Part shown: positions 1 through 15,687 of the stretch, one piece after another
How positions within the stretch are numbered: the first letter of the stretch is position 1
Layout: each line of letters starts with the position of its first letter
Origin: Candidatus Marsarchaeota archaeon
Lineage (GTDB): Archaea > Micrarchaeota > Micrarchaeia > Micrarchaeales > Micrarchaeaceae
Assembly (NCBI GenBank): GCA_023485505.1
Contig: JAMCZN010000041.1
Location: forward strand, 1 to 23,857
DNA length: 23,857 bases
Reading direction: 5' to 3'
Notes under the pieces: model-generated
What the model saw: the letters and a program-made list of their open reading frames with translations, nothing else
What the model was told of the DNA's origin: nothing
The model's database searches: none
Made by a program: the position numbers and the translations under genes

Positions 1-956
1 ACACCACCATTAGATATTATTCTTTTCGTTATAAGTCCTCTGTCTTCACATATTCGTATGAAAAGTAGTCTATTAATAAGTACATAGATTGATTCCTTAC
101 AAAATACCTGCTTATTCTCCTCCTCCTTATCATCTGGTCTGTTTGAAAGTGCTTTCCAAATATAATATCCTGAAAATGTTGAAAATTTCTTATATCTGCC
201 CTCAGTTTTTAATTCGTACCTTGCTATCTCGGCAGCTTGCTTTCTGTTATCTCCATTATGTTTTTTCATTTCTTCTAATTCATCTTTAGTTTGTTTATAC
301 TGCGCATAGTTGGCATAATATTCATCAAACGCAGAATAGGTGTACTGGCGCAATATATCATTTGAGATGTAATTTAGTTGTTCTATAAGTTTATCAAAGC
401 CTACATCCTCTGCTACATCTATTTTAGCGTAATATGGATCAAAAATACCATATTTTGCTTCGCTCCATATCTGTTCTTTTGTTATGTTATTCAAAAAAAG
501 AATCTGTTCTGTTTCTTTTGTAGAAATTTTGCTTTCTGTTGTTCTCTTTGAATTTATAAGATTCAAAAAGTCTATATCAGATTTTAGGATTTTTTCTCTA
601 CCAGTAATCTCCCATAATATGAACCTGTAACCATTGGTAAGACCTACAAAATGTGTTGAAGAATCTGCATATTTACCTGCTTGATCCCGCCATGTTTGGG
701 CGTCTAAATTCTCTTTTGGCCGTTTTGTCTCTATTACAACTATACGATTTTTGTTTTCATCAAGAAGTGTTATATCTGTCCTACTACGTTCAAACGTGTA
801 GTCCGACCCTTCATATCCTAAAACGCCCTCTATCAGATATTTAGCTAGTCTTGGACTAAAATCATGCTCAAGCGAATCTATAGTTATCTCGCTGTTTATC
901 TTCTTAAAAGCGAGTAAGATTTTGTCTGTGAAACTTAAATCTTGTTTAGAAATCAT
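1..956 (-). CDS. Restriction-modification enzyme, N-terminal part. It has an HsdR_N/Mrr-like PD-(D/E)xK nuclease domain and a helical spacer, and is probably type IIG or type ISP. The 3' end runs off the window.
   Basis: This gene is absent from the supplied ORF track because it has no stop codon within the window; I translated it by hand. ATG lies at 956-954 on the minus strand, and at least 318 codons are open down to position 3. The N-terminus is MISKQDLSFTDKILLAFKKINSEITIDSLEHDFSPRLAKYLIEGVLGYEGSDYTFERSRTDITLLDENKNRIVVIETKRPKENLDAQTWRD. The DITLLDE...IVVIETKRP segment is a classic D-x(n)-(D/E)-x-K nuclease core of the HsdR_N/Mrr type. About 190 aa downstream is the motif INRLLFIRICEDRGLI. 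I recognise this as the conserved helix that precedes the gamma-class N6-adenine methyltransferase domain in type IIG/IIL enzymes (MmeI-like) and in BREX PglX. No Walker A helicase motif appears in the 318 aa, which argues against a type I HsdR. Confidence 0.6.
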   Translation of the reverse strand, partial: MISKQDLSFTDKILLAFKKINSEITIDSLEHDFSPRLAKYLIEGVLGYEGSDYTFERSRTDITLLDENKNRIVVIETKRPKENLDAQTWRDQAGKYADSSTHFVGLTNGYRFILWEITGREKILKSDIDFLNLINSKRTTESKISTKETEQILFLNNITKEQIWSEAKYGIFDPYYAKIDVAEDVGFDKLIEQLNYISNDILRQYTYSAFDEYYANYAQYKQTKDELEEMKKHNGDNRKQAAEIARYELKTEGRYKKFSTFSGYYIWKALSNRPDDKEEENKQVFCKESIYVLINRLLFIRICEDRGLITKRIISNGG

Positions 957-965
957 TTTGCCAAC

Positions 966-2045
966 CTATTCTAATTTCTTTTGCCCTACCTCCTCACCTT
1001 TAAATATTCCGCTTTTCCACATTTTCTCAACGAAATAGCTAGTTATTTCCTTCTCTGGTAATTCTTTCCAGACAACTTTGTATTTGGTATTTTCAGTAAC
1101 CTCGCCGTTATCCCTTTCTACCAAACCCATCTTGACAAAGTTTTCCATAGCTGTTGAAACAAGTTGGGTTTTAAACTGAATTCTTTCTGTAGCACCGTTG
1201 CTATCTACTATATAAGGCAATGAGTAGAGCTTATTTAGATACTTAATTAACTTTGACAATTTTACTTCAAACACATTTTCTCCTGTCCTATACCACTCCA
1301 AAATTATATCCTTATCAGATTTTTTATTTATTTCAGGAAATATTTGCGCCCATAATAGTTGCATTACATATACTATCGGAGTTGCGCCATTATTCTCTTC
1401 AAATATTTTAAACATTCCAATTTCTTTATCTAGTTCTCCTCTGTAATAACTTATTTTTCCTCTCTTTATCTTATTTTCAATTTCACTAGAACTCAATGTT
1501 CCCCATTCATATGATATTCGTATCTGTTCCGTATTAGCTAATGGTTCAACAACATATACTAAAAGAATAAATTTTCGCTCAAATGCGCTTTTTTGTTTAT
1601 CAAGGAAATCAAATTTTAATACAGCCATTGCATCGGTACATCCCTGTGGAGCAAGTAATATTAAATCATGATTCTTTATGCCGATATTAGAAATGTTAAT
1701 ATCATATGATTTTAGTTGCTTAATTAGGTCATTTTCTATAAACGTCTTTAGATAATCTTCTTCAGAAACAAAAATTTGCCTGTTATTAGGATTCGGCAGC
1801 GACCTTTTGGCATCTCCAACTATTGCAAATTTTGGCAATTTTATTATTATATCTGGAGTAGGCGAATTTTTGTCATTTGGAATAATCCTTCCGCCAAAGT
1901 AAAACTCGCCACCTTCACTTTTTGTGAATTTGTACAAAGCAATAAGAGATTTTAATAAACGCTGGTAATTGTTTATATCAGCAGCTATCTCTCTCTTCTT
2001 GCTTTCCAAGCCCTCTGGATCTTTATCAGACATTTTGAATTTCAC
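966..2045 (-). CDS. Hypothetical protein of 359 aa (356 aa from the ATG at 2033). Candidate PD-(D/E)xK nuclease-fold protein, second gene of the island operon.
   Basis: Long ORF in the AT-rich island. The track start at 2045 is GTG. An ATG at 2033-2031 overlaps the stop of the upstream gene in the string ATGTCTGA, which indicates translational coupling. The segment SPTPDIIIKLPKFAIVGDAKRS fits the PD-x(12)-(D/E)xK spacing. I recognise no other family signature. Confidence 0.55.
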   Translation of the reverse strand: MKFKMSDKDPEGLESKKREIAADINNYQRLLKSLIALYKFTKSEGGEFYFGGRIIPNDKNSPTPDIIIKLPKFAIVGDAKRSLPNPNNRQIFVSEEDYLKTFIENDLIKQLKSYDINISNIGIKNHDLILLAPQGCTDAMAVLKFDFLDKQKSAFERKFILLVYVVEPLANTEQIRISYEWGTLSSSEIENKIKRGKISYYRGELDKEIGMFKIFEENNGATPIVYVMQLLWAQIFPEINKKSDKDIILEWYRTGENVFEVKLSKLIKYLNKLYSLPYIVDSNGATERIQFKTQLVSTAMENFVKMGLVERDNGEVTENTKYKVVWKELPEKEITSYFVEKMWKSGIFKGEEVGQKKLE

Positions 2046-3105
2046 CCTCGTAATTCTCAGTTAGAAAAGACAGCAATCGGTTAAATACTGTTGGAGTAAC
2101 TTGTGTCTGCGGTATTATATGTATTTCATTTGAAGCGGGAACCGTTATATCAAAAGAACCTCCAGAAACGTAATCCAATACATTCAATTCTATAAAAAAT
2201 TTGTTTAAAGAAATTATTGAATACCCCCATTTTGGCAATCCCTTTATTACTTCAATAAATTTAAGCGCATCATTTTCTTCTAGGAACAACTCACTCTTCA
2301 ATTTTATCTTTATAGGTTTTGCAACTACATCATCAAAACTTCTTGCCCTATTTTCTAAGGTGTTTTTATATAGTTCATCATTCCATGTTTTCAATAACTC
2401 TTCTAAAACAAAGACAAAGAACTTGGCGAAACCCATATTTCTATATGAGAATATCCCGTCCCTGCCTATCCTTAGTTTACTAACCGCATCTGACTCGGAT
2501 TTTCCCTTTAGATTAACTACGATGCTATCTACCCACATATGTTCACTAACAGCGTTCAAAAACAAGTCGGAGTAAGGAGTCTTAGCAAAACATAGCCTCG
2601 TTTCTTTTTTGCCGTAATATCTCTTGACAACATAGCGTTGGGCTTCTATGTCCGTCTCGGTTGTCTTTTCTATGCGTCCAAGTAGCTTTAATAGTTCTAC
2701 AGAGCTAAAGAATGTTCTTGATATTAAAGGATAGTAACTTCTGAAAAATGCCAATTGTACATTCTTAAAGTCTATATGTTTTGCATTACTAAGGATTATT
2801 CCAATAGGCCACTCTTTTAAATTTATCAACAAACAGCTTGGTTCTAAATCTTTCCCATATAATTTTAATCTGAATTTAAATATATCGCCAATTTCACTTT
2901 TATCAATTTCGAAAGTTGTACCGTCAAACGCAGCTGGCATGTGCTTTTTGAACAACTCTGCCATGCTATATCTTTTATCATAAGTGCAGATTGCAACTTT
3001 AGGAGGAGTACCGCTAACTTCACCAAATAGGCGTTCTATCGTAATAAAAAATTTACGCTTATTCTGATCTAGCATGCCGTATTCTTCTATTTTCATTGAA
3101 ACCAT
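2026..3105 (-). CDS. Hypothetical protein of 359 aa, first gene of the island operon.
   Basis: ATG at 3105-3103. An AT-rich TATA-like stretch lies 25-35 nt upstream on the minus strand, consistent with a leaderless transcript. The ORF is 1080 nt and uninterrupted in roughly 30% GC DNA, which is unlikely by chance because AT-rich sequence is stop-codon rich. I recognise no family. Confidence 0.5.
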   Translation of the reverse strand: MVSMKIEEYGMLDQNKRKFFITIERLFGEVSGTPPKVAICTYDKRYSMAELFKKHMPAAFDGTTFEIDKSEIGDIFKFRLKLYGKDLEPSCLLINLKEWPIGIILSNAKHIDFKNVQLAFFRSYYPLISRTFFSSVELLKLLGRIEKTTETDIEAQRYVVKRYYGKKETRLCFAKTPYSDLFLNAVSEHMWVDSIVVNLKGKSESDAVSKLRIGRDGIFSYRNMGFAKFFVFVLEELLKTWNDELYKNTLENRARSFDDVVAKPIKIKLKSELFLEENDALKFIEVIKGLPKWGYSIISLNKFFIELNVLDYVSGGSFDITVPASNEIHIIPQTQVTPTVFNRLLSFLTENYEGEIQNV

Positions 3106-3206
3106 TCTAAATTAGGTTGACGCTATTCTTTAATTCTAAGCATTTAACGCTCTTATGCCTTTCTGATTATGGTTGGCTCTATCATTAGGCACTTCTCAAT
3201 AAGCCT

Positions 3207-3247
3207 GATTGGACTCCTTGATGCTATTTACAAGCCGTAGTCCAATC
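3207..3247. repeat. Inverted repeat of 9 bp with a 23-nt spacer (GATTGGACT ... AGTCCAATC) in the intergenic region between the AT-rich island and the GC-rich RNA locus.
   Basis: Positions 3207-3215 are the exact reverse complement of 3239-3247. Confidence 0.5.
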
Positions 3248-3344
3248 CAATTATTGCCCCGATTAGGTTTATAATCTCGTTCCCGCTTCCGGATTTGCGC
3301 CTAGCCATAGTAGTATATCTCAGCAAAGAATTATCAGTTTTATG

Positions 3345-3650
3345 GTAAGGAAACCTATAATCCTTAAGCTACGCCAACACGTTCATCCTACAGATTCACG
3401 TGGGCTAGCGTCCCCACGGACAGCAAGCTGGCAACCCAGCAAGCGGCTGATTTTGCGGGGGGTCAAAATCAGCCTTAACGCCGCCATGTCTTACAAGGTA
3501 GCCGCGGCAGCCGTAGCCCGCCGTGCGACACCAAAGGTGTCTTCTGGGCGGGCGGAGGCTGCGTGGCGGGGTTTCTCTACACGAAACTCTACATGGACGG
3601 CTATAATATTGATGTGCAGTCATGTAGAGAGAAAATAGCCTCATTTTGAG
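3345..3650. ncRNA. GC-rich, highly structured non-coding RNA locus of about 300 nt. Class is unassigned; SRP/7S RNA or RNase P RNA are the size-compatible candidates.
   Basis: GC content jumps to over 60% for about 280 nt between AT-rich flanks. The only ORFs here are two overlapping low-complexity frames on opposite strands, which is typical of GC-rich RNA. Extensive nested complementarity is present. An 11-bp perfect hairpin spans 3445-3474. A 6-bp hairpin spans 3527-3541. A long interrupted helix pairs 3481-3486 with 3564-3569, 3508-3512 with 3557-3561 and 3516-3522 with 3547-3553. The CAGCAAGC octamer is duplicated at 3421 and 3437. CTCTACA occurs three times (3575, 3587, and inverted at 3622). 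A TATA-like box at about 3313-3320 and a T-rich tract after a hairpin at about 3636-3680 suggest plus-strand expression, but strand is not proven. Confidence 0.4.
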
Positions 3651-3700: not shown

Positions 3701-4861
3701 TCATGGCTGCATCCAGTCAATCTCATAATACTCGTATTCGCTCTTTGGAAGGCTAATGCGCCTTATCTTGTAATAGGTCACTGCAGTTTCCCTGTCGGCT
3801 ATGGCAACAATGAGCTCCAGCCTGTGCTCCTTCGCTTCGTTTATTATGGCCGAAAGCTCGGCTCCGCCTATGAACTCGTCTTCGCTTATGGACAGCATGG
3901 CGAACCTTGGCCTGTCCTTTCCGGGGGTCTCTATGTTCCCATCCTTCCTGTGGTACAGTACGAAATCCATCAGAAGCTTTTTCTTCCGGCTTTTTCCCGG
4001 GATGGCAAGGATGAACGTCTTCCTTACGGAATGCGCGACCCTTATGGCGCGTGCCCATTCTGAAATGAGGAGCTTAGCGTCCCTTGGGAACACGTGTATG
4101 ACGTGCTTTGAATGCACCCAGTCTTCGTTTCCCCTTATTGGCCTTGCGCCTGGAAAATAAATCCTGAAATGCGTGCCGAACTTGAAGCCCGTCTTCACAA
4201 CATAGCCCTTGCTCCTCCAGTCCGCATAAACCTGATACAGCTTTGGAAAATCCTTTCGTCTCTTTGTTGCCATTTTTATTATCTCCGATTTGCTGTAGTT
4301 CCTTACGTTTAGGGACTTGTTTTCCATAAGGAAAATGGTTTCGTATGCGTCAAGCTTGTTTAGTATGCCCCTTTCGCTTATCTTGTAGGTGCCGTATTGC
4401 CCGAACCATTGTTCGCTATATATCTCCTTGCCCTTTTCCGAATCGTCCACTATGCACATAAGGTCTTCGGGAAAGAATAGCCCTTCAAGCCTGTAGTTTT
4501 TGAGCTTGAATTGCGATGATGGGTAACCCTTTATTGGGGTTTTGTTCCCATCCTTTGACAATTGGATCTCTTCTGGCTTCTTTATTATCAGTCCCCTGTC
4601 CCTCCAGTCCTTGTATGTGAAATATCGTGCCATTAGCTTTCCGGAAAATCCGAACCTTTCGACAAGCCCGTTGAAGTGAAGTTTTTCCCCGTTGTCTCTG
4701 CATTCGGCATTTCTGACGTCAATAAGGTATAGGGCTTCTTCTGGGCTGAGGTGCAAAGTCCCATCTTTAAGAGTGCCTATATGGCCCTTCATCAGTATGT
4801 CTTTTGACGACTGGTCAGTAACGACTACCCTGTTCGTATCTCTTATTTCAAGTAAAAGCAA
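3701..4861 (-). CDS. endA: tRNA-splicing endonuclease EndA, 386 aa, multi-unit fused form.
   Basis: The N-domain motif HLSPEEALYL is present. The catalytic-domain motif is LYQVYADWRSKGYVVKTGFKFGTHFRIYFPG ... HSKHVIHVFP. An upstream degenerate copy, ARYFTYKDWRDRGLIIKKPEE, indicates an internal duplication with one pseudo-catalytic unit. The C-terminus reads LELIVAIADRETAVTYYKIRR. The track start is TTG. At 386 aa the protein is larger than the roughly 180-aa alpha4 and roughly 290-350-aa alpha'2 forms. Confidence 0.8.
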   Translation of the reverse strand: MLLLEIRDTNRVVVTDQSSKDILMKGHIGTLKDGTLHLSPEEALYLIDVRNAECRDNGEKLHFNGLVERFGFSGKLMARYFTYKDWRDRGLIIKKPEEIQLSKDGNKTPIKGYPSSQFKLKNYRLEGLFFPEDLMCIVDDSEKGKEIYSEQWFGQYGTYKISERGILNKLDAYETIFLMENKSLNVRNYSKSEIIKMATKRRKDFPKLYQVYADWRSKGYVVKTGFKFGTHFRIYFPGARPIRGNEDWVHSKHVIHVFPRDAKLLISEWARAIRVAHSVRKTFILAIPGKSRKKKLLMDFVLYHRKDGNIETPGKDRPRFAMLSISEDEFIGGAELSAIINEAKEHRLELIVAIADRETAVTYYKIRRISLPKSEYEYYEIDWMQP

Positions 4862-4942: not shown

Positions 4943-5731
4943 TCATTTCAGTTGCAGCTCCACCTCTCCTTCTACGGCGTATATGCTGCTTATGACCTCT
5001 TTCTCGACCTCTGTCATCTTGGCAGGTATTATGAGTGCGGTCGGTCCGTTTGCAAAATTTAGTTTGCCTGCCCTTTTTACAGTTGTAAGGAGGTGCTGCT
5101 GCTCCGGCCATGCGAGCTTGTGCATTATGAACATCATTGTGTTGTCTTTTATGATCCCCCTCTTGTATTTTTTTTCTGCCTCGTACATTATCTTTACCGC
5201 TTCCTTCAGCTCGAGAGACGCATTCTTGAGAGGGTCGTAATCGAGAAGCACTATGCTGTGGAGATTGGCGTCGAAGTTCCTTTTTATCGTCTCATAGAAT
5301 GAGACTGGCTGATAATTGTGCGTCCACCTGGATATTGTGCATATCTGGCCGAACCTGTAGAAATCGAGGCCGCTCTCGCCCATGAGCGCCGGCAGCATCG
5401 AGCTTCCATGGTGTATCTTTACCTTCACATTGTACTTTTTGGCTTCAATCAAAAGGATTTTGTGAGTTGTGGCCGCAAGAGGGTCTCCGCCTACGAGCAG
5501 GACTATCTCCTTGTCCTTTGCCTTCTTTACGAATTCTCCCGCTTGCTCTTCAAGATCCTGCCTGTGGAGTTCCACTATCTTCTTTCCGATAAGTTCCTCT
5601 ATGTAGTCTCTCCTGTTGTCGGTTATGTGGGTGGTGTACCTTTCCATGTACACTTCTGACTTTTTGCACAGCTCTATCAAACCTATGGGAAAATCGAATT
5701 TTATCAGGCCTATTCCAGTTAGATACAGCAT
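4943..5731 (-). CDS. dph5: Diphthine synthase (diphthamide biosynthesis methyltransferase).
   Basis: The N-terminus MLYLTGIGL...YMERYT and the overall 262-aa tetrapyrrole-methylase-like pattern are typical of archaeal DphB/Dph5. Confidence 0.8.
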   Translation of the reverse strand: MLYLTGIGLIKFDFPIGLIELCKKSEVYMERYTTHITDNRRDYIEELIGKKIVELHRQDLEEQAGEFVKKAKDKEIVLLVGGDPLAATTHKILLIEAKKYNVKVKIHHGSSMLPALMGESGLDFYRFGQICTISRWTHNYQPVSFYETIKRNFDANLHSIVLLDYDPLKNASLELKEAVKIMYEAEKKYKRGIIKDNTMMFIMHKLAWPEQQHLLTTVKRAGKLNFANGPTALIIPAKMTEVEKEVISSIYAVEGEVELQLK

Positions 5732-5773
5732 GCGACCATTTTCAATACGTTAAACACGGACCTTAATCCAACC

Positions 5774-6736
5774 TTAATCCTTAACTCCATTGGTGGTTAT
5801 CTTTATAACACATTCCCCTTCTGGCTGGCTCGGAGAATCGACAAGCCTCACTATTCTCTTCTCTTCCTTGCTCTTCCTCATGTACAGCCTCGTAGTTGCA
5901 GCATGAGCGATGACGTTTCCGCCTATTGGCGTTGTCGGGTCGCCGAACATTATTCCGGGATTGTCCATTACCTGGTTTGTGACGTATACCGCAAGGTTGT
6001 ACTTGTCCGCAAGCATCTGCAGCCTGTGTATATGGGAGTTGAGCTTTTGTTGCCTTTCGCCAAGAGCGCCCCTGCCAAGGTATTCCGCCCTGAACAAAGA
6101 TGTGAGCGAATCCACTATTATCAGTTTTATGTTCTTTTCCTGTATTAGCTTGTCCGCCCTTTCAAGCGTAAGTATCTGTTGTTCGGTAGTCATGGCCCTT
6201 ACTACGACTATGTTTCCGAGCACCGTCTTTGGGTCAAGGTCTTCGGCCTTTGCAATCTCAGCTATCCTTTCCGGCCTGAATGTCCCCTCGCTGTCTATAA
6301 AGAAGACAGCCCCGTCAAGGCCACCCTTGTCCCTCGGAAGCTGCGCATTTACAGAGAGCTGGAATGCGATCTGTGATTTGCCGCTGGAGAACTTTCCATA
6401 TGCCTCTGTTATGCCATTGGTCTCAACTCCCCCGCCAAGCATCTCGTCAAGGTCCTTTGATCCAGTGGTAATCCTGCCTATGGCCTTCCTTTTCTCAAGT
6501 ATCTGTTCTCCAGTTTCATAATTTACTGTTGTCGATTCCTGCGCGGCGGCTATTGCCTTTTTTGCAGCGTCAACGCTGATTCCGGACAGTTCTGAAAGGT
6601 CATGCGGAGAATAAACGGCGATCTTATCAAGAGTGTCAACGCCCGCGCTCCTTAGCTTCTCGGCGGTAGTCTCCCCTATGCCGGGCAAGTCCTCCAGTTC
6701 TCTGATAGCCTTATCTTTGGCCATTAAAACACCCAC
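5774..6736 (-). CDS. radA: DNA repair and recombination protein RadA.
   Basis: N-terminal HhH segment (LEDLPGIGETTAEKLRSAGVDTLDKIA), Walker A (GKFSSGKSQ) and the RecA-fold core. Length is 320 aa. Confidence 0.9.
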   Translation of the reverse strand: MGVLMAKDKAIRELEDLPGIGETTAEKLRSAGVDTLDKIAVYSPHDLSELSGISVDAAKKAIAAAQESTTVNYETGEQILEKRKAIGRITTGSKDLDEMLGGGVETNGITEAYGKFSSGKSQIAFQLSVNAQLPRDKGGLDGAVFFIDSEGTFRPERIAEIAKAEDLDPKTVLGNIVVVRAMTTEQQILTLERADKLIQEKNIKLIIVDSLTSLFRAEYLGRGALGERQQKLNSHIHRLQMLADKYNLAVYVTNQVMDNPGIMFGDPTTPIGGNVIAHAATTRLYMRKSKEEKRIVRLVDSPSQPEGECVIKITTNGVKD

Positions 6737-6794
6737 AATAAGCGCTTATACTACGTCTATGAAGTTTATAGACCTTTGCTTGTTGTGCGATGAT

Positions 6795-7175
6795 TTATGT
6801 TGGCTTTCCGTTCTTATTCCGATTCGCTACCTTGCCAACAAAGTGGATTACAAGCAGCGCAATTGCAAACCATATGATGAAATCGAGGAATGCTCCAAAG
6901 TAATTATATGAAAAAACACATCCGGATGGCGGATGTCCGTATATCGTTTGCGGACAGAACACATTGCCTACTGAAAAGAAATCGAAGCCAAAACCAGACA
7001 TTGATGTCAGATATGGCGCTATCGCCAATCCGACCATCGCACCGATTACCGCCGATATTATTGTTTCGAAAATAAATCGCATAATGGGATATGGATTTAT
7101 CGGCTTTAAAACTTTTGAAAGCGTTTGGTTTCTAGATAAATCTGCTCTTTGTCTTGTTGCGAACAAAAACTTCAT
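6795..7175 (-). CDS. Small integral membrane protein, hypothetical.
   Basis: The 126-aa product has 3-4 predicted hydrophobic helices and no recognisable family. Confidence 0.4.
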   Translation of the reverse strand: MKFLFATRQRADLSRNQTLSKVLKPINPYPIMRFIFETIISAVIGAMVGLAIAPYLTSMSGFGFDFFSVGNVFCPQTIYGHPPSGCVFSYNYFGAFLDFIIWFAIALLVIHFVGKVANRNKNGKPT

Positions 7176-7235
7176 CCAATCAGAATATCGGTTAAATTAA
7201 CGGATATGCTTGTCATAGGAAAGCAATCACTATGC

Positions 7236-8039
7236 CTACAGCTCCCCATCTATGTAATGTTTTGACGCGGATATTGCAGAATCCCAAGGTGCCTTTTCTG
7301 CTACAAGGTGAAAGTCGTTCCCTTTTTCTAATATGTATTTATCGATACTACCAATATTGGCGCCTTGCTTTTGCATTTCTTTCAAAATATAGCTATATGA
7401 CGGCATCTTTATTGAAAGCACACCGACCGGACCATCAGTTAGATTCGCTATCGCATGGGCATAGCCGGCGGGTATGCCGACTACCGTTGCAGCGTCATAC
7501 ATGCCGCCAACTGCATAAAGAGATCCTGCTGTTGAAATTGAATCGGCAAATTTGTTTTCGCTTACCATAAACACTGGTGCCCCCAACCAACCAATCTTTA
7601 CTTCCATTCCGTTTGCAGCACAGTAATGCATGTGATAATGCAATGGTCCTGAAACCCCTGGAGGTATGATGTCGTATGTCACTTCAAATGGCGCTGATGA
7701 GCCTTTTGGAGTCAATGGGACGAACAATGCCCCATCGAGATACATATGGGCTCCCGTCGGTATTTCATACGGTTTTCTTACAAGCCGGAGAGTGCTCTCG
7801 TTTACAATGTCGGACATGCCAGCAAGCTCCATCGCCTTACGGACCATCCTTTCTATATAATCGCCCTTAAGAATTGGGCTCCTATTCGGAAAACTAACGT
7901 TTTCGTATTTTATTTCTGAGGGTACTGTTGGCATGTTATCAAGCATTTGACGAGTTTCCTGATATTTAAGCGTTTGGAATTGAAGTACTGTCAGCATTCT
8001 GCCGATTTTCAATAACGGATCCCCTCTTAAGGGCCTCAT
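7236..8039 (-). CDS. Cupin-fold protein. Possibly a metal-dependent sugar-phosphate isomerase or epimerase-like protein; function uncertain.
   Basis: The segment PPGVSGPLHYHMHY...ME resembles the cupin motif G(x)5HxH...E. The product is 267 aa. The likely start is an internal Met at 7997, which reduces the overlap with the upstream gene. Confidence 0.45.
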   Translation of the reverse strand: MRPLRGDPLLKIGRMLTVLQFQTLKYQETRQMLDNMPTVPSEIKYENVSFPNRSPILKGDYIERMVRKAMELAGMSDIVNESTLRLVRKPYEIPTGAHMYLDGALFVPLTPKGSSAPFEVTYDIIPPGVSGPLHYHMHYCAANGMEVKIGWLGAPVFMVSENKFADSISTAGSLYAVGGMYDAATVVGIPAGYAHAIANLTDGPVGVLSIKMPSYSYILKEMQKQGANIGSIDKYILEKGNDFHLVAEKAPWDSAISASKHYIDGEL

Positions 8040-8748
8040 TTACGCAGTTTACCAGAGCAAGTGCCTTCCTCGTGGCAGACCATCTCTGAATTTCACCGTC
8101 CTGTTGGGGATCCTTTGCCAAATAGCCCATTTTTACCAGATCTTCTATCGCTATGGGCTGTCTTCCAAACGAAAGCCCCCTCATCCTTGCCATCGTCACA
8201 TAGCCGCTGGCGCAGCAAGCTCCAATTATCAGCACATCCCTTACGGTAAGGCCGTTATCTATTGCCTCTTTAAGAAGCTCCTCGTTCGTGCGCTTATGGC
8301 CTTTTGCACCCCTTAAAAGCCCGCTCGCCGAACCTATTTCGACATATGTGCTTAAAATATCTGTCATGTCCTGCACTATCGCCCTGGAGCGCTGTGTTGC
8401 ATGGATCATGTGGTCGTCACCAATGCGTTCCACCAGTATGTTCCTTCTTGATATGTCGTATGGCGCGCTTCTGCGAGATTTGACTTTTTCTACATGCTCT
8501 GGTGCGTGCTGGTTTGCCATTTCAAAGAAATGCTTATAATCAGTTACGCCATTCCTGAGCAGCTTGTCCAATGCAAGCAGGCGTCCAAGAGCCATGTTCC
8601 CCTGAAGCCTTCGTTCACGGAAAACCTGCTTGTAAATACGGTATATTTGGCGCCATGGCATCGCCATTTCATTAACTTCAGCTACGGAATTAACGCCGTC
8701 TATCGGCACTTGCATTGCCCCTCTTGCGGTTGAAACCATGTAAATCAT
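7966..8748 (-). CDS. Hypothetical protein of 260 aa.
   Basis: Long ORF. The GLTVRDVLIIGACCASGYVTMARMRGL segment is glycine- and cysteine-rich. I recognise no family. Confidence 0.45.
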   Translation of the reverse strand: MIYMVSTARGAMQVPIDGVNSVAEVNEMAMPWRQIYRIYKQVFRERRLQGNMALGRLLALDKLLRNGVTDYKHFFEMANQHAPEHVEKVKSRRSAPYDISRRNILVERIGDDHMIHATQRSRAIVQDMTDILSTYVEIGSASGLLRGAKGHKRTNEELLKEAIDNGLTVRDVLIIGACCASGYVTMARMRGLSFGRQPIAIEDLVKMGYLAKDPQQDGEIQRWSATRKALALVNCVNEALKRGSVIENRQNADSTSIPNA

Positions 8749-8900
8749 CTTTTCCTCAGATTTTTCAGATATTTATGCGTGACTGCATCCGCTTGGACTC
8801 TATTTGCGTATTGGATTGCTTCAATTTCCGAGAGCAACCAATCAGATAGATATTTAAACAACCGGAGCATTAGCTATACCATCTTTAAAAGAAGAAATAG

Positions 8901-8926
8901 TGCCAGCGTGGAAATACACGCTGGCA
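8901..8926. repeat. Perfect 10-bp hairpin (TGCCAGCGTG gaaata CACGCTGGCA) in the 5' intergenic region of the DUF92 gene.
   Basis: The two arms are exact reverse complements. Confidence 0.5.
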
Positions 8927-9062
8927 AGGCGACCAGTTCTTCACGACCTTCCTACAGTAGAGAACCCGTAATAGAACTGCTGCAAACAGGTTTAAAAGCT
9001 TTACTGCAACAAGCCAAATAGGGGAATTATCAGTCGATATTCCAATAAAATGGAAGGTAAAT

Positions 9063-9848
9063 ATGGGTCTTTTGACACTAGATGTGAGGGGCATTTCCAT
9101 GGCGCTTTTGATAGCCCTTGCGATGCTCGCATTTGGGTATGCCACAAGCCCGGCAAGCCTCAACCATTTCGCCAAATCCTCGCTCGGTATATTCTATGTC
9201 ATAACCATGGTGTACTTCCTTTTCCTTTCAGCCATAGTCACTAGAGCGGGAAAGATGTATAAGCGGATCATAAACCAGTACCAGAGGCCGAGGGGCTTCA
9301 AGAACGTGCTTGCAAACGGGAGCGGCCCGCTAATTTTCATCATAATTGCCGCAATAGTGCAGGTCTCTTATGCCGGTTCCGGGATGTATCTCACCTCAAC
9401 CGGCTATGGATCCTACACTTTTGCACTTATAGTCGGATTCGTGGCCAGCGTAGCCGCAGTCACGTCCGATAAGTTCAGCAGCGAGATAGGCATACTTGAC
9501 GGAAAACCAACGTCATTGGTCACCTTCAAGAAGGTCAAGAAGGGGACTTCCGGCGGTGTGACGTGGGTCGGTCTTTTGTCAGGGCTACTTGGGGCATTTC
9601 TCATATCTCTTCCGTTTGCCCTTGAACAGGTCATGTACTATGGCACGCTTAGTGTCGCTCCGTTGGCCATAATAGTGCTTACGATGTCGGTGATAACGCT
9701 AAGCGGCTTTATTGGCACCATTGTAGACTCATTCCTGGGCCATTATGAAGAGAAGGGGATAGGCAACAAGTACACATCCAATTTCTTTTGCAGCCTTGCA
9801 GGTGGAGGGGTGGCGGTATTGTTAGTGCTGGTGCTTGGCCTGTTTTAA
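9063..9848 (+). CDS. DUF92/TIGR00297-family integral membrane protein.
   Basis: A multi-pass membrane profile and the glycine-rich motif KKGTSGGVTWVGLLSG, which is characteristic of the DUF92 family. Length is 261 aa. Confidence 0.55.
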   Translation: MGLLTLDVRGISMALLIALAMLAFGYATSPASLNHFAKSSLGIFYVITMVYFLFLSAIVTRAGKMYKRIINQYQRPRGFKNVLANGSGPLIFIIIAAIVQVSYAGSGMYLTSTGYGSYTFALIVGFVASVAAVTSDKFSSEIGILDGKPTSLVTFKKVKKGTSGGVTWVGLLSGLLGAFLISLPFALEQVMYYGTLSVAPLAIIVLTMSVITLSGFIGTIVDSFLGHYEEKGIGNKYTSNFFCSLAGGGVAVLLVLVLGLF

Positions 9849-10303
9849 CCCTTGGTTATGTTGAATGTCGCAGTTGTTCCGCAGGTTGCAGATGGTGCTG
9901 CGGAGTATGTGTTCATCACTATGGAGTAATTGCCAGATGGGAGCGAAGTCTCGTTTTCGGAGTAGCCGCACGCTCTTGTATTAACGGAGATGTTTCCCTT
10001 GCTTGATGAGACCACCACGGTAGCATTTGATGTTCCAGCAGTAAGCTGCACTATCATTGCACCGCCCGGCCACGCACAGCTCTTCTTTATGTATGCGTAG
10101 GAATGAGTCGTGGTAAGCTGATAATCGTTACAAGAAGTAAGAGAGGACGTGTTATTCGTCGCGCTGTTTGATGTTGTAGTGTGATTGGATGCGGAAACCT
10201 GAACTGCGGTGAACGAGGGCGCCCCATTTATAACGTATGCGCTGGCCACGCCCAGTATTGCGGCTATGATCATAGATGTTACGTAAAGCGCAACTGGTTT
10301 CAT
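9845..10303 (-). CDS. Secreted Ser/Thr-rich protein, hypothetical.
   Basis: N-terminal signal peptide MKPVALYVTSMIIAAILGVASAYV. Composition is Thr/Ser/Asn-rich with possible glycosylation sequons. Length is 152 aa. Confidence 0.45.
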   Translation of the reverse strand: MKPVALYVTSMIIAAILGVASAYVINGAPSFTAVQVSASNHTTTSNSATNNTSSLTSCNDYQLTTTHSYAYIKKSCAWPGGAMIVQLTAGTSNATVVVSSSKGNISVNTRACGYSENETSLPSGNYSIVMNTYSAAPSATCGTTATFNITKG

Positions 10304-10413
10304 TTAATCAACAGGGATTTGCATTGATTCTTTATAAGGCTTTCGTTAGGGCATTCAAAGTATCGTTGGTGTGATGGAATAGCGGCAAGCCTGCCATAAA
10401 ACAAAGAATAAAA

Positions 10414-10539
10414 CGCCAGGGTAGGGATTTGAACCCTAAAGCCCCGAAGGGCACCGGTTTGCCTGTTTCGCATCACTAATCAGCTCTTGATATTTTAAAA
10501 ACTCAAGACCGGCGCATTACCGGATTCTGCCACCCTGGC
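10414..10539 (-). tRNA. tRNA-Ser(UGA) with a 42-nt intron at the canonical 37/38 position.
   Basis: I folded the cloverleaf by hand. The acceptor is GCCAGGG/CCCTGGC with discriminator G73. The anticodon stem is CCGGT/ACCGG and the loop is CT-TGA-G. A long variable arm (GCCC-UUCG-GGGC) marks it as class II. The T-arm is TAGGG-TTCAAAT-CCCTA. The intron forms a canonical bulge-helix-bulge. Exon CTTG (positions 32-35) pairs with intron CAGG. The two 3-nt bulges are AG|T and CA|A. An intron-internal UUUU/GAAA helix is also present. Confidence 0.85.
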
Positions 10540-10596
10540 ACGTAAAAAGTTATGAATTACTGGTTTAAAGAACTATTGCAACAGCGGAATTGAGAG

Positions 10597-11457
10597 TCAT
10601 TTCCTTTTCCTCACAACAAAGATCATGCGATATTCGCCGGGCGTAAGGGGTTTGACGGTATAGTTTCCGTATACGGCAAGTACATCAAGACCGTTAGCTT
10701 TGCACATCTTTTCAAGCTCCTCTTTTGAATACAGCCTTACTTTCGTAATCTTCGTGCTTATCTTTTTCATGGAGTTCTTTCCGTCCTTGATCAGGGTGGT
10801 TTTTATCACCCATGTGTCTTTCCTTACCTTGTTTTCCACTATCCGGAACATGCCATTATCGAGATAATCCGCAACAATCGGCATCATTTTTTCTATCGTT
10901 GGATCCTTGTTGTGTGTGTCAAGTACCAATATGCCGCCAGGCCTAAGGACCCTTGCAAACTCCTTCACGGTCTTCATGTTATCGGATTCATTGAAATAGC
11001 CGAATGATGTGAACAGGTTTGCAACGACATCAAAACTGCCATTAGGATATGGAAGTCTCCTCATGTCCGCCACCATATACCTGTCCTTGAATTTCGGAGA
11101 GCGGGATTTTGCCGTTTCTATGAACCCTTTTTCGATATCCGCGCCATACACGTCGAAGCCTTCATCCCTTAGATAGACATCGTGCCTTCCGAGGCCGCAT
11201 GGAACATTGAGCACTTTGTTTGGGTGTTCGCCGAACTTCCTGCCCCAGAACCTGATTAGCATGGCGAAATACGCGGCTTCCATTTCGGCCCTTTGCAGCA
11301 CATGCCTGTCTGCTATGTGCCATAATCCAGATATTTCCCCTACTGTGCGCTTGGGCTTGTTCATCTTATCAGTATACTTTAATGCACATAATTTATCTAT
11401 TTGTTGTTTAAATCGGGATCTGGCCATTGAAGGTGTCAAATTTAAAAACCATTTCAT
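10597..11457 (-). CDS. Class I SAM-dependent methyltransferase.
   Basis: Motif I (VLNVPCGLGRHDVYL), then acidic loop, then FDVVANLF, then LRPGGILVL. The track start at 11517 would overlap the divergent neighbour by 45 nt, so an internal ATG at 11457, 11427 or 11364 is more likely. Confidence 0.7.
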   Translation of the reverse strand: MKWFLNLTPSMARSRFKQQIDKLCALKYTDKMNKPKRTVGEISGLWHIADRHVLQRAEMEAAYFAMLIRFWGRKFGEHPNKVLNVPCGLGRHDVYLRDEGFDVYGADIEKGFIETAKSRSPKFKDRYMVADMRRLPYPNGSFDVVANLFTSFGYFNESDNMKTVKEFARVLRPGGILVLDTHNKDPTIEKMMPIVADYLDNGMFRIVENKVRKDTWVIKTTLIKDGKNSMKKISTKITKVRLYSKEELEKMCKANGLDVLAVYGNYTVKPLTPGEYRMIFVVRKRK

Positions 11458-11472
11458 CGATAATATCTTATC

Positions 11473-12339
11473 ATGAACAAGATAACGGCGATACTCAGGC
11501 TTACAAGGATAGAGCACTCTTTGATGCTGATAGTCGCGGTAGTGGCCGCGGAGATGGTCTCTGGAGGCATTCCCTCTTTTCCAATACTGATAAGCAGCCT
11601 CGTATCTCCCGCGCTGGTAAGCATGGGCGCATTCGCGATAAACGACTTCTATGACGTAAAGGCAGATATTGCAAACAAGAGGTTTGAGAGGCCACTGGTG
11701 GCTAAGGCGATATCGCCGCAGGTTGCGATCATGGTCTCTCTCCTGTGCCTGGTTATCGGGACCACATTGAGCATGTTCATAAACCTCTATGCCTTCGCCA
11801 TTGCGATAATATTTGCGGCTCTTGCACTGCTATACAGCTACAAACTTAAGGACCTGCTCCTATGGGGCAACGTATACATAGCGTTCACAATGGTGATACC
11901 TTTCGTATATGGGGACCTGGTAGTTGCGCCTTCGATAAACATGGACATAGTGTTGATATCATTTGTCGTGTTCCTTAGCGGACTTGCGCGTGAGATACAC
12001 GGAATGATACGGGACGCAAAGGGCGACAAGAGGGCAAGGAGGTCAAGGAACCTTATCCAATATGTGGGGATAAACAATTCATCGGCAATAGCCCTGATAT
12101 TATATGCTGAAGCGATAGTGATAAGCATATTCATGTTCCTTTACAGCATGCCGTTCCTTTACAACATAGTTTACATAGTGCCAATAGCCATTTCTGACAT
12201 AATGCTTGCTTATGTCGCAGTTGGCTACAGGTTCAAGAGCAATAGAAGGTTCTTCGACATGTCAAGAAACCTCAGCCTGGGTGCAATGGGGCTTGCTTTG
12301 CTCGCTTATCTTCTAGCTTCCGTAGTATACCTTGTGTGA
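11473..12339 (+). CDS. UbiA-family prenyltransferase, probably a digeranylgeranylglyceryl phosphate synthase-like enzyme.
   Basis: Eight or nine transmembrane helices. The aspartate-rich motif AINDFYDVKADIANKR (NDxxDxxxD) sits at the cytoplasmic end of TM2. A second D-rich region is also present. Confidence 0.75.
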   Translation: MNKITAILRLTRIEHSLMLIVAVVAAEMVSGGIPSFPILISSLVSPALVSMGAFAINDFYDVKADIANKRFERPLVAKAISPQVAIMVSLLCLVIGTTLSMFINLYAFAIAIIFAALALLYSYKLKDLLLWGNVYIAFTMVIPFVYGDLVVAPSINMDIVLISFVVFLSGLAREIHGMIRDAKGDKRARRSRNLIQYVGINNSSAIALILYAEAIVISIFMFLYSMPFLYNIVYIVPIAISDIMLAYVAVGYRFKSNRRFFDMSRNLSLGAMGLALLAYLLASVVYLV

Positions 12340-12415
12340 ACCTGTCAGCGTCTGGAAAAATCAGATAAAAAAAAGAAAATAGCAGGAGCCCTATTCGGCC
12401 CCTGCCCCCAACCAC

Positions 12416-14203
12416 CTAGGAAGTTACCGTCGACTTTGGCAGATTCTTCTCAGTGCTCGTCTCCGTTTGGCCCGTTCTCAGGAAGCTTTTTACCAATTCT
12501 CCCACGGTCTTGCCGGCGTTTGCCGGATTTGTGAGTATTGATATCAGTTTGTCCTGGGTTTCTGGGCTCAGTCCGGCTACCTGCAACTCCTGCGCAAGGG
12601 CTATGCCCTGTTCAGGTCCGACCAGTATCTCACCGAGCAATCCGCCGCTTGTCAGCTTTTGCGGGTTATCGGTAATCAGGTTGATGTTCGCGCGTCCTGC
12701 CACCTGTGCCATCGCTTCTGCCCTCTTCAGATTGACGACCTGCCATGCATCAATCTTCTTGGCGTCAAGCGCCGCATGTCCGCCGCCAGTGGCATCCATG
12801 TATTCCTTCTGCGCCTTGGCCTGCTCCCTGGTGCCGTTTGCTTGCCCGACCAATTTTGCCTGGATGGCTTCTCCGTCCGCTTTACCCATTGCGGCTATCT
12901 TGGCGGCTTCTCCCTCTCCCTCCGCTCTTGCCCTTGCTCCGGCGCCTTCTCCCTCTGCCGTAAGCCTTGCCTTCGTTCCGGCTCCTTCCAGTTCTGCCTT
13001 CTCTTTCGAGGCCTGTGCCTCAAGGATGGTCTGCTGCTTGTTGGCCTCTGCCACCAGAATCTTTGTCCTGTTGTCCGCTTCAGCCTCCTTTATTCTCTTT
13101 TCCTTCTGGGCATCGGCATTGGTTATGGTCACCGTCCTGCTATAGTCGGCAGTACCCGTTTGCAGGGCCCTTTCCGCCCCTACCTTCTTCTCGTTGGTCT
13201 CCTTCGTTGCATCCTGCACCGCCTGTTCCATCTGCTGCTTTGCGACGCCAAGTTCCTTATCCTTCTGGAAATCCCTCTTTCCGGCCAGTTCTGAATTCTC
13301 GGCCTCTGCTATCTCAGCCTCCTTTTTCTGGGTTGCCACTACGACCCTCGCTTCCTTCTCCTGTTGTGCGACTATCTTCTTCGTATCTGCATCAACCACT
13401 GCCGCTCTCTGCCTTTGCAGGTTGTCTATGATCACGCTCCCGTCAGCATCTTTTATTACGGGAACCTCCACGTTTACAAGCTGCAATCCCCACTTAGGGA
13501 ACAGGTCTCTGACCTCCTTCTCCACCGCATGCTGCAGCTGATCCCTGTTCTTGAACAGGTCCATTATCGTGTGCTGCATTGCCGCTGTCCTGATGATTGA
13601 TTCGACCATTACCCTGAAGTCGTCATCGATCTCAATCCTCAGCCCGTTTGAATTGGCTCCCGGAGCGTTGCGCCCTTCATATGGCTCCCTGCTTCCAGTA
13701 ATCGTCGTCCTTTCTGCCGCCATTATCGGGTCTACCACGTGGACGAACGCCACCACATCGCACAGGAATTCTGCAAAATCCTTGTCGTTCAGTTTGATGT
13801 TTACTGCGCTTACCCTGAAGTTCGAAAGAGGTACGGTTATCGTTTTCTGGAATTTGCCGATCTTTGGATACACGGCGTTTGGAACCCTGTCCCTTTCACC
13901 GTAAACCGTGTGCTTTTCGTGGCTTTCCGGATCCTCCACCAGCACCGGGCGTTCTACTTCAACACCGGTTTCTGCGTCTTTCGTCTTCTTTGTTATCAGG
14001 AAGTACTCCTTTTTCCTTGCAGAATACTCGTGTACTCCGTGTCCGTCCGATACTACCACTGCGACGTTTGCTGGAATAACGTGTTGCCAACCAAACATAA
14101 TCTTAAGTCTGCTGGGCTGAACTATCCAGTTATCTTGTGCTAGCTTAGCAGATGCATCCTCCTGTGCATCGTTTCTGTTTTTTGTGTTGCTTTCTGTGGT
14201 CAT
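12416..14203 (-). CDS. Flotillin-like SPFH/band-7 domain protein with an EA-rich coiled-coil tail.
   Basis: An SPFH core (IPANVAVVVSDGHG...) is followed by about 250 aa of Glu/Ala/Lys/Gln-rich heptad repeats (AEGEGAGARARAEGEGEAAKIAAMGKADGEA), as in flotillin/YqiK. Length is 595 aa. No N-terminal transmembrane helix is apparent. Confidence 0.7.
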   Translation of the reverse strand: MTTESNTKNRNDAQEDASAKLAQDNWIVQPSRLKIMFGWQHVIPANVAVVVSDGHGVHEYSARKKEYFLITKKTKDAETGVEVERPVLVEDPESHEKHTVYGERDRVPNAVYPKIGKFQKTITVPLSNFRVSAVNIKLNDKDFAEFLCDVVAFVHVVDPIMAAERTTITGSREPYEGRNAPGANSNGLRIEIDDDFRVMVESIIRTAAMQHTIMDLFKNRDQLQHAVEKEVRDLFPKWGLQLVNVEVPVIKDADGSVIIDNLQRQRAAVVDADTKKIVAQQEKEARVVVATQKKEAEIAEAENSELAGKRDFQKDKELGVAKQQMEQAVQDATKETNEKKVGAERALQTGTADYSRTVTITNADAQKEKRIKEAEADNRTKILVAEANKQQTILEAQASKEKAELEGAGTKARLTAEGEGAGARARAEGEGEAAKIAAMGKADGEAIQAKLVGQANGTREQAKAQKEYMDATGGGHAALDAKKIDAWQVVNLKRAEAMAQVAGRANINLITDNPQKLTSGGLLGEILVGPEQGIALAQELQVAGLSPETQDKLISILTNPANAGKTVGELVKSFLRTGQTETSTEKNLPKSTVTS

Positions 14204-14397
14204 TTTATCACCAATACGAATGACCTTTTCCCGTTATTTACGCATATTTAATTGTTGAAATATTTTCCTTAATATTTGACTTTTTGTAAACTATGCGACG
14301 CAGCAACTTGCATATACGTGTTGGAAATGCAGTGGGAACCTTATAAATCAAGTAGTAAAAATCAAATTTGTTTGACAATTTTTGACCAAATGTAAAG

Positions 14398-14407
14398 TTT
14401 ATTATAT
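14398..14407 (+). promoter_or_regulatory. TATA box for the Lrp-like gene. It sits about 25 nt upstream of the ATG, consistent with a leaderless transcript.
   Basis: TTTATTATAT is followed by the ATG at 14428. TTTGAC repeats lie just upstream at about 14275, 14371 and 14382. Confidence 0.4.
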
Positions 14408-14427
14408 CTCTGGAGGAAAATAAGATT

Positions 14428-15444
14428 ATGGATTTCTTTACGAAAACCGAAAGGACGATCCTGGGCTCTCTGAGCGCCAATTCCAGGACATCCGTAACCG
14501 AGCTTGCAAAAGAAGCCAAGTGCTCAAGGGTAACCGCGGTAAAGAACCTGAATAGGCTTGAGAAGAGGTTCAACATCAGGTATACGCTGGAGATAGATGA
14601 AAGCAAGCTCGTTGGCTGCGAAAGGCACCTGCTGGCGATAAAATTCGTGAAGAAGCCTTCCGTCGCATTCCTTAAGGAGTTTTTCAAGAACGACGAGTTC
14701 GCCGAGGAGGTCTTTCTGCTCGATGGCCACTATGACCTTTTCATATTCGGATGGGCAGGGGATCCCGTAAGCTACATCAAATGGGAGACTTACCTTGCTT
14801 CAGAGCTTGCCGAGTTCAAGCCGGAGATAAGGTCAACAGAATTGGTAGTGTCCCTATTCGGATTCTGGCCGCTGAACGACTCTTTCGTGGACGAGATACA
14901 CGAATCCATAAAGCTGGACAAGGTTGACAGGAAGATGCTTGCCCTTCTTAACGAAGATTCCAGGATGTCACTATCGGATATGGCAAAAATGATGGAGATA
15001 GGGAGAGGAACGGTAAGATACCGCCTCTTCAGGCTAATGAAAAGCGGGATAATAAAGAGGTTCACGCTCGCTATCCAGAGCCCGCCGCAGAAATACCAAT
15101 TGCTTTACTTTGTGAACTATACCTTTAACAAGGGAGTGAGGGACAGGTTTCTCGAACTGAGAAGAAGGTACCAAAGCATGGACGACCAAGAGCATCCGAT
15201 ACTTGGCACTATACAGTTCGCAGCGCAGTTGAGCGGCAGTTTCAGGTCGTTCGGAATGGCAATCTCCAACACAGAAGAAGAGGCGATGGACAGCGTGATA
15301 GACATGAGCAAGGAGGTGTTGATGATGGACAACCCGGTAATCACCCATGCGCGGATCGTTAAAGTCATAAAGGGATTGCTGCCCCTAAGGAACCTGGATA
15401 TCAAGAGAAACTACATGAAAATAGACTGGATGCCAAACGACTGA
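14428..15444 (+). CDS. Tandem-duplicated Lrp/AsnC-family transcriptional regulator (two HTH plus RAM units in one polypeptide).
   Basis: Two HTH_AsnC-like segments are present: TERTILGSLSANSRTSVTELAKEAKCSRVTAVKNLNRLE at the N-terminus and DRKMLALLNEDSRMSLSDMAKMMEIGRGTVRYRLFRLMKSGII in the middle. Each is followed by a roughly 80-aa RAM-like domain. Length is 338 aa, about twice a normal Lrp. Confidence 0.7.
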   Translation: MDFFTKTERTILGSLSANSRTSVTELAKEAKCSRVTAVKNLNRLEKRFNIRYTLEIDESKLVGCERHLLAIKFVKKPSVAFLKEFFKNDEFAEEVFLLDGHYDLFIFGWAGDPVSYIKWETYLASELAEFKPEIRSTELVVSLFGFWPLNDSFVDEIHESIKLDKVDRKMLALLNEDSRMSLSDMAKMMEIGRGTVRYRLFRLMKSGIIKRFTLAIQSPPQKYQLLYFVNYTFNKGVRDRFLELRRRYQSMDDQEHPILGTIQFAAQLSGSFRSFGMAISNTEEEAMDSVIDMSKEVLMMDNPVITHARIVKVIKGLLPLRNLDIKRNYMKIDWMPND

Positions 15445-15544
15445 GATAAAAACAGCATGTTGGACGCGCGTCTATAGCCATGAAATGCGTAAATATCTGA
15501 AACTTCATAATATATATTGTGGATGAGAGAAGGTTGTGCTTGTC

Positions 15545-15657
15545 CTGGCGCAGCACGTACGCCCCTGTCGGGGATTGCGTTGCGTGGTGTCATGCGCTGC
15601 GCTGGGCTTATAATTATCATGCTCCCACCGAGCTGCCCCGCATGGGCGGCTTTTCTT
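15545..15657 (+). ncRNA. Candidate small structured RNA, or a structured 3' UTR/terminator element, in the convergent intergenic region between the Lrp-like gene and rps2.
   Basis: A TATA-like ATAATATATATT lies at 15507-15518. About 25 nt downstream begins a roughly 110-nt GC-rich segment containing several hairpins (GTGCT..AGCAC, CCCC-TGTC-GGGG, GCCC-GCAT-GGGC). It ends in the T-tract TTTTCTT at 15651-15657. The 10-bp palindrome GACGCGCGTC lies upstream at 15463-15472. Confidence 0.3.
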
Positions 15658-15687
15658 AACTACTTTTTAGAAATAGAGAACTAGACA

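Follow-up and report, generated by a model that had tools for sequence, protein, structure and literature searches.

A strictly paired two-gene cassette beside a type IIG gene in a Candidatus Marsarchaeota archaeon: a candidate mobile defence module

Introduction

The Eco57I/MmeI-like type IIG restriction enzymes join an N-terminal PD-(D/E)xK nuclease head and a long helical spacer to a gamma-class N6-adenine methyltransferase and a TaqI_C target-recognition domain. Nuclease-based multi-gene systems such as HEC-02 (an ABC ATPase with a NERD nuclease) and Lamassu/ABC-3C occur within or beside restriction-modification loci (bioRxiv 10.1101/2024.01.29.577857). Among proteins with TBP-like folds, RdgC is a recombination-associated DNA-binding protein (PMC9235857), RnlA of the RnlAB anti-phage toxin-antitoxin system carries its TBP-like domains and a HEPN RNase as a single fused polypeptide, and folds of the RdgC, CENP-L/N and RnlA type bind DNA or RNA substrates in characterised proteins (PMC9235857, PMC8266594). 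With these systems we compare three genes, named A, B and C, that occupy an AT-rich island at the left end of a 23,857-nucleotide (nt) stretch of DNA (hereafter the window) from a Candidatus Marsarchaeota archaeon (GenBank assembly GCA_023485505.1, contig JAMCZN010000041.1, positions 1 to 23,857 of the forward strand). Genes A and B form an unannotated, strictly paired mobile cassette that is a credible new candidate defence system, and gene C appears to be the head of a type IIG enzyme.

The defence systems of the DPANN archaea and of bacteria of the candidate phyla radiation (CPR) are poorly charted, discovery pipelines being trained on cultivated bacteria. The A-B cassette, with about 195 clusters of B-family proteins, recurs beside restriction-modification genes and integrases in such ultrasmall archaea, and its distribution corrects a tempting reading of A and B as subunits of the type IIG enzyme.

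The A-B Cassette

As the earlier note on this DNA had described, the AT-rich stretch is filled by three co-directional, tightly packed open reading frames (ORFs) on the minus strand.

2026..3105, minus strand: gene A, an ORF of 359 amino acids (aa) from ATG, the first gene of the A-B cassette
966..2045, minus strand: gene B, a 359-aa ORF from GTG, overlapping the 3' end of A
1..956, minus strand: gene C, 318 codons, running off the left edge

Close homologues of A begin at its fourth codon, which places its probable start at 3096 (356 aa), and the start that close homologues of B use, an ATG at 2033 (355 aa), is the probable one for B. The two genes share 8-20 nt, and the stop codon of B is separated from the ATG of C by 9 nt. 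The GC content is 0.333 at 1-3105 and 0.39 in the spacer at 3106-3340, as against 0.465 at 3651-23857, and every 500-nt segment outside the island has a value of at least 0.388. The contrast of 33% with 46% for the rest bears out the earlier claim that the stretch is compositionally foreign and AT-rich, the value of about 30% then given for it being corrected to about 33%.

That A and B constitute a unit is evident from their distribution. Of 5.8 billion clusters, homology searches picked out 15 with A and 7 with B, none of them carrying a Pfam domain, and the relatives of A and those of B sit on shared contigs. Twelve distinct A loci were collected by context look-ups and pattern scans (a genome scan seeded with alignment A1), the hosts of A-B loci being Micrarchaeota, Pacearchaeota, Nanoarchaeota, Thermoplasmatales, Methanomassiliicoccaceae and a CPR bacterium (Buchananbacteria). 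At all 12, B lies directly downstream of A and overlaps its 3' end, and at one of them B is truncated by an insertion sequence (IS) element. A HMMER profile search with B extended the family to 195 representative clusters (E<=1e-3), and 67 of these passed E<=1e-10; the named family members that were looked up are all labelled 'hypothetical' and come from metagenome-assembled genomes of Asgard archaea (Borrarchaeum), Aenigmatarchaeota and Korarchaeota. The pairing extends to a distant B member of about 21% identity (P0081; locus L027), where the gene upstream again overlaps and is matched by the profile of A (hhalign probability 97.5, E 6.8e-12). Across loci the pairwise identities of A co-vary with those of B (r=0.93, 55 pairs), showing that the two are inherited together. 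Paralogy of A and B, which their equal length might suggest, was ruled out (hhalign probability 0.2).

The unit is also independent of gene C. Genes of the C family occur without A or B at loci L002 and L003, and A-B occurs without a C-family gene at L009, L012, L014, L016, L020 and L011/L019. At the DNA level, the match of the window to locus L004 is confined to A-B (981-3101, 75%) and that to locus L017 is confined to C (3-919, 69%), so that similarity between the window and its relatives breaks at the module borders. Gene order differs likewise: it is A-B-C in the window, C-A-B followed by a 105-aa gene, a HerA-like 637-aa gene, a 140-aa gene and an integrase in L017, and A-B followed by genes of 105, 637 and 150 aa, a different type IIG gene and an integrase in L004. 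The nearest relatives of the island, in Micrarchaeota and Parvarchaeum, probably belong to the same broad group as the host and not to a distant phylum.

Gene C and the Three-Gene Alternative

Gene C has the N-terminal features of the Eco57I/MmeI-like type IIG enzymes, namely a predicted PD-(D/E)xK head with the motif D...ETK and a long helical spacer. Residues are numbered here by the 319-aa translation of 1-959.

723..776, minus strand: nuclease motif D62...E77-T-K79 of C, in near-invariant columns of alignment A5

It departs from those enzymes in that the window holds only residues 1-318 and in that the match of the nuclease head to Pfam HSDR_N_2 (residues 57-122) falls below threshold, with E 2.9e-4 and 21.3 bits where the cut-off is 25; against PADLOC-DB v2, C gave no match at E<=1. 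An identical database copy (P0001, 319 aa, on a 66.7-kb contig) is itself marked 'partial'. Since the source contig ends where the window begins, and the source has no DNA beyond, C is truncated, and the methyltransferase and recognition domain were read in its relatives. The Micrarchaeota genome of L017 encodes a protein of 1024 aa that is 69% identical to C across all 318 residues and that comprises, in one chain, HSDR_N_2 (56-121), N6_Mtase/Eco57I/MmeI_Mtase (391-714; E 1.3e-25 for N6_Mtase and 2e-32 for Eco57I) and TaqI_C (814-973; E 4.7e-6), with the gamma-class motif I DPACGSGGF, motif IV NPPY and the same D...ETK motif as C. A second relative, P0008 (56% identity to C), runs on into N6_Mtase/MmeI_Mtase, and the next ORF has Eco57I and TaqI_C. 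At L002 the C relative is split into ORFs of 555 and 475 aa, the second with TaqI_C (E 4.2e-19), by either a frameshift or a genuine division of the gene. Because the full-length L017 relative has nuclease, methyltransferase and TaqI_C in one chain, C is read by orthology as the predicted head of an ordinary, self-sufficient single-chain type IIG enzyme, in agreement with the assignment first proposed for it. At L002 (899-4048 and 6999-11892) the split gene adjoins a Tn7-like set of TniQ, TnsA-like, Mu-transposase_C and TniB genes.

The earlier note had gone on to propose A and B as dedicated partners of the type IIG enzyme, in a three-gene restriction system in which they would supply accessory, specificity or nuclease subunits; a softer form of this proposal would make A-B a generic accessory to any adjacent system. 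A-B and a C-family gene are indeed adjacent and co-directional in two genomes (with gaps of 9 nt in the window and 33 nt in L017), although the A-B cassettes of these genomes come from separate subclades (33-39% identity). At L004, A-B is followed by a type IIG gene 3 kb downstream, and the model retains some weight because A-B and type IIG genes are juxtaposed these three times; with the softer form it shares the finding that some restriction-modification gene lies near A-B at eight of nine loci. The consistent co-occurrence expected of a three-gene system was not found, however: C-family genes lack A-B at L002 and L003, A-B accompanies MjaI-type II, type III, type ISP and C5 systems and stands alone in L014, the order of A-B and C is not conserved, and the L017 orthologue of C is complete in itself, with its own target-recognition domain. 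We therefore judge a single multi-component system of A, B and C quite unlikely, and treat A-B as a module in its own right.

Genomic Neighbourhoods and Mobility

At nine loci the neighbourhood of A-B was informative, and at eight of these restriction-modification or DNA methyltransferase genes lie within approximately 5 kb of the cassette. They are of no single type.

Window: type IIG gene, adjacent
L017: type IIG gene, adjacent and upstream (33-nt gap)
L004: a different type IIG gene, 3 kb downstream
L009: MjaI endonuclease and N6_N4 methylase
L012: N6_N4 methylase, and an SMC/SbcC-like ATPase directly upstream of A-B
L016: C5 methylase with Vsr
L020 (Nanoarchaeota): type III Mod/Res and a DUF2779/Cas4-like protein
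L011/L019: type ISP
L014: no restriction-modification gene

Integrases were found at L004, L017, L012 and L023 and a transposase at L011, and the GC content of A-B lies below that of its flanks at 10 of 11 loci. The earlier description of the neighbourhood as defence-like and mobile is supported. At L020 the DUF2779/Cas4-like protein (512 aa; 8357-9895) is encoded between the type III Mod/Res pair and A-B.

Mobility is most readily followed at L004 and L017, where the cassettes equivalent to that of the window sit in integrase-bearing elements inserted in an RNA gene, as do the archaeal tRNA-inserted integrase elements that carry defence cargo. At both loci a tyrosine integrase abuts tRNA-Arg, and direct repeats of 29-31 nt from the 3' part of the tRNA bound about 11 kb of DNA. 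The L004 element (10.6 kb) lies between perfect copies, 30-31 nt long, at 7787-7817 and 18365-18395, and the L017 element (11.1 kb, 4979-16153) between perfect 29-nt copies, at 4979-5007 and inside the tRNA-Arg at 16123-16200, so that both marks of such an element, integrase and border repeats, are present in each. L017 has in addition a second attachment (att) remnant of 23 nt at 4463-4485. The two elements have a common backbone of 67-81% identity, consisting of the 105-aa gene, the HerA/terminase-like 637-aa ATPase gene, the 140-150-aa gene and the integrase. The A-B cassettes that they carry fall into separate subclades (35-39% identity), and the type IIG gene occupies another position in each. 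With the backbone conserved and A-B exchanged, the cassette behaves as swappable cargo, and the two loci document the shuffling of cassettes within small tRNA-Arg elements of Micrarchaeota.

Residence in such elements could also mean that A-B serves the element itself, either as a maintenance or recombination module, in which an RdgC-like modulator and a RecB/HsdR_N-like nuclease would act in replication, excision or repair, or as an addiction pair. In the tRNA-inserted elements of L004 and L017 the cassette lies near one att end, in L023 it is two genes from the integrase, and in L012 it is preceded by an SbcC/SMC-like ATPase, which may be read in the same sense. The association of RdgC with recombination (PMC9235857) would suit a maintenance role, and the overlapping gene pair resembles the layout of a toxin-antitoxin system. 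Yet a backbone kept at 67-81% while A-B is exchanged between subclades marks the pair as cargo and not as a core function of the element. No integrase lies within 8 kb of A-B at L009, L014, L016 or L020, no relatives of A or B were found among 2.9 million viral contigs, and the recurrence of restriction-modification genes next to the cassette fits the logic of a defence island better. Maintenance or addiction is on this evidence a rather unlikely function for A-B, and a defence or exclusion cassette carried as cargo remains the preferred interpretation.

The ATPase at L012 bears on a further alternative. It is a 797-aa SMC_N/AAA_23, SbcC-like ABC ATPase encoded directly upstream of A-B (5572-7965), found also in the Thermoplasmatales loci L013, L018 and L025, and in this group ATPase, A and B may form a three-gene variant of the cassette. 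A-B might accordingly be a reduced SMC-based system of the Lamassu/ABC-3C kind, with B as the middle component or a kleisin-like subunit. This notion draws on the upstream ATPase and on the similarity that a few members of the B family show to LmuC, to JetB/DUF4194 and to MC7, for which the best match reached E 2.6e-4 and 21 bits, the cut-off being 27. None of these similarities attains the curated threshold, they are limited to about 50 residues in a region of winged-helix or helical character, and the nuclease motif that is B's strongest conserved feature is lacking in middle components. HEC-02 and Lamassu/ABC-3C are nuclease-based, as is proposed for A-B, but they have no A-like protein. 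Membership of A-B among the Lamassu/ABC-3C systems was rejected, as an SMC-like ATPase is missing from 11 of the 12 distinct loci as well as from the window; we hold it to be highly improbable.

Predicted Properties of Protein B

The features of B are those of a candidate nuclease with a predicted winged helix at its C-terminus.

1806..1856, minus strand: PD-(D/E)xK motif of B, P64-D65...[D/E]78-x-K80 (alignment A4)
1704..1718, minus strand: QxxxY motif of B, Q110-x-x-x-Y114
1011..1190, minus strand: predicted winged-helix domain of B, residues ~286-345, C-terminal

In alignment A4, which holds 127 diverse sequences, P64 and D65 are invariant and K80, Q110 and Y114 are at least 90% conserved; the PD-(D/E)xK motif is present in 136 of 149 family members. 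In HsdR_N/RecB-type nucleases a QxxxY motif follows the ExK strand. The catalytic-type motif is thus a conserved property of the family, and the two motifs together make B a candidate PD-(D/E)xK nuclease with an HsdR_N/RecB-type signature.

More distant comparisons were less decisive. Alignment of the N-terminal half of B with the nuclease head of C by hhalign placed Q110/Y114 in register with Q93-x-x-K-Y97 and aligned the ExK residues, at a non-significant E of 0.2. An AlphaFold2 (AF2) model built from an 8-sequence alignment had a confidence score (pLDDT) of 54, with the N-terminal half, the presumptive nuclease domain, below 50. Profiles of B, that of 127 sequences included, matched nothing in the PDB, and B had no match at threshold in Pfam or PADLOC. 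Scattered weak matches among family members were of two kinds, those to nucleases (HSDR_N, AHJR-like, TdeIII and the NERD-type HEC-02B) and those to the winged-helix or kleisin-interacting proteins DUF4194/JetB, MC7 and LmuC; among the few weak PADLOC matches of the 127 members, the best was to HEC-02B (6.6e-5, in two members).

The arrangement proposed for B from its motifs, a nuclease domain with a winged helix, is that of DpnI. Neither DpnI nor Mrr has significant sequence similarity to B, and both lack an upstream partner, which in the case of B is constant. The modification-dependent nucleases of types IV and IIM nevertheless serve as a working analogy for A-B, in which modification dependence would be conjectural.

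Predicted Properties of Protein A

Protein A is predicted, with a confident structure model, to consist of three tandem TBP-like/KA1-like alpha+beta domains, the model resembling the folds of RdgC, CENP-L/N and the TBP-like part of RnlA. The family is marked by the invariant motifs YPLISR, WVDS, RINRxG, DYxSG and IIPQTQ, none of which is known in RdgC. The likeness to RdgC and CENP-L/CENP-N is one of predicted fold, sequence identity being 5-12% and TM-scores only about 0.3; A did not match the Pfam RdgC family, and its profile found no match among PDB sequences. The formation of a ring and the binding of DNA by A would therefore be conjectures drawn from the model. Unlike RnlA, A is a stand-alone TBP-like protein, the partner of which is the DNase-type PD-(D/E)xK protein B and not a fused RNase domain. 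No equivalent RdgC-like component of a defence system was found in the literature.

Proposed Function of the Cassette

The most likely identity of A-B is a mobile, nuclease-based candidate cassette for defence or for the exclusion of mobile elements. The first of the two modules in the island would be C, with its PD-(D/E)xK head, helical spacer, gamma-class NPPY N6-adenine methyltransferase and TaqI_C target-recognition domain, and the second the translationally coupled A-B cassette, which is a conserved unit. Protein A, with tandem TBP-like domains resembling those of the DNA-encircling RdgC and of CENP-L/N, is proposed to bind or sense nucleic acid and, through physical interaction, to recruit or license B. 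The HsdR_N-like PD-(D/E)xK domain of B would then cut DNA, with the winged helix adding to its recognition. As A-B is not consistently accompanied by any one type of methyltransferase, the sparing of the host's own DNA would have to come either from modification dependence (type IV/IIM-like, as with DpnI and Mrr) or from the sensing by A of a feature specific to the invader. A-B would in this way provide a second, independent nuclease-based layer beside whichever restriction-modification system shares its island. Bases 1-3340 would correspond to the edge of horizontally acquired, AT-rich mobile-element cargo in which the two independent modules are joined in the manner of an operon; for this explanation in its entirety, we consider the balance of probability to be slightly favourable.

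A number of points weigh against a defence function. The link of A-B to defence is one of genomic context, and the sample of neighbourhoods is small, comprising nine informative loci with no formal background rate. At one of these, L014, the neighbourhood contains neither a restriction-modification nor a mobility gene. The earlier observation that A and B stand outside any annotated family was upheld, with nothing significant for either in Pfam, NCBIfam, PADLOC, PHROGs or the PDB and no PADLOC match at E<=1, so that no curated model identifies them as defence proteins. The case for a nuclease fold in B is made from motifs, given the poor AF2 model and the non-significant match to the head of C. 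Finally, type IIG genes directly adjoin A-B at two loci, where the order of the genes differs, and one lies close to it at a third, which could still reflect a functional link and not a chance meeting.

A more specific proposal may be put forward tentatively, as one that we think more probably wrong than right by a wide margin: that A-B is a new immune system of two components, with its centre in archaea and CPR bacteria. Here A would act as a DNA-encircling, RdgC/CENP-LN-like sensor that loads B, an HsdR_N-type nuclease with a winged helix, onto the DNA of an invader or licenses it there, the whole being swappable within tRNA-inserted elements and acting together with restriction-modification systems of any type. 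Were a defence function to prove true, A-B would represent a new combination of effector and sensor, an HsdR_N-like nuclease with a protein of TBP-like repeats, and would give the RdgC/CENP-L/N fold its first role in immunity.

Borders of the Island and Adjoining Genes

Two non-coding features lie between gene A and the host genes on its right.

3141..3163, minus strand: putative promoter element, 23 nt, upstream of A, with a TTAAAT TATA-like box
3345..3650, no strand assigned: GC-rich non-coding element of strong structure, bordering the AT-rich stretch on the right

The first is the sole intergenic similarity to L004, where 91% identity over 23 nt is found in the region upstream of A, and it is plausibly the archaeal promoter of an A-B(-C) transcript. 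The second has a GC content of 0.54 and folds better than its shuffles, with minimum free energy z-scores of -5.9 and -6.1 on the two strands. The structure attributed to it in the earlier note was accordingly confirmed, and its identification as an RNA gene was not: no Rfam match was obtained at gathering score or at E<=1, the only one at E<=10 being a chance match to mir-614, and BLAST found no homologue in any fetched locus. The one match to its hairpin pattern in a scan of viral contigs (L028) proved to be unrelated.

Integration of the island into this element, as had also been suggested, is not supported. With no Rfam identity for the element and the far boundary of the island off the contig, neither a repeat of 3345-3650 that would mark an att site nor a tRNA-Arg fragment was found in the window, and the att sequence that L004 and L017 have in tRNA-Arg was not present near the island border. 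An integrase is likewise not visible in the window, in contrast to the tRNA-inserted elements described above; any element here would continue past the contig end.

Beyond the structured element, the minus-strand gene for the tRNA-splicing endonuclease EndA (3701-4861, 386 aa) matches over its full length the three-unit epsilon2 enzyme of ARMAN-2, 'Ca. Micrarchaeum acidiphilum' (PDB 4FZ2; E 5.6e-164). This match makes a Micrarchaeum-like DPANN archaeon the probable source of the contig, although the public record bears the name Marsarchaeota. A gene for diphthine synthase is also among the neighbours of the island. Further along, the minus strand carries a 595-aa ORF (12416-14203) that is locally GC-rich (0.52-0.59) with a strongly negative AT skew. 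A minus-strand match to the Rfam tRNA model at 10414-10539 (126 nt, 45.7 bits), for which ARAGORN made no call, is probably an intron-containing tRNA, in keeping with the nearby EndA of broad specificity.

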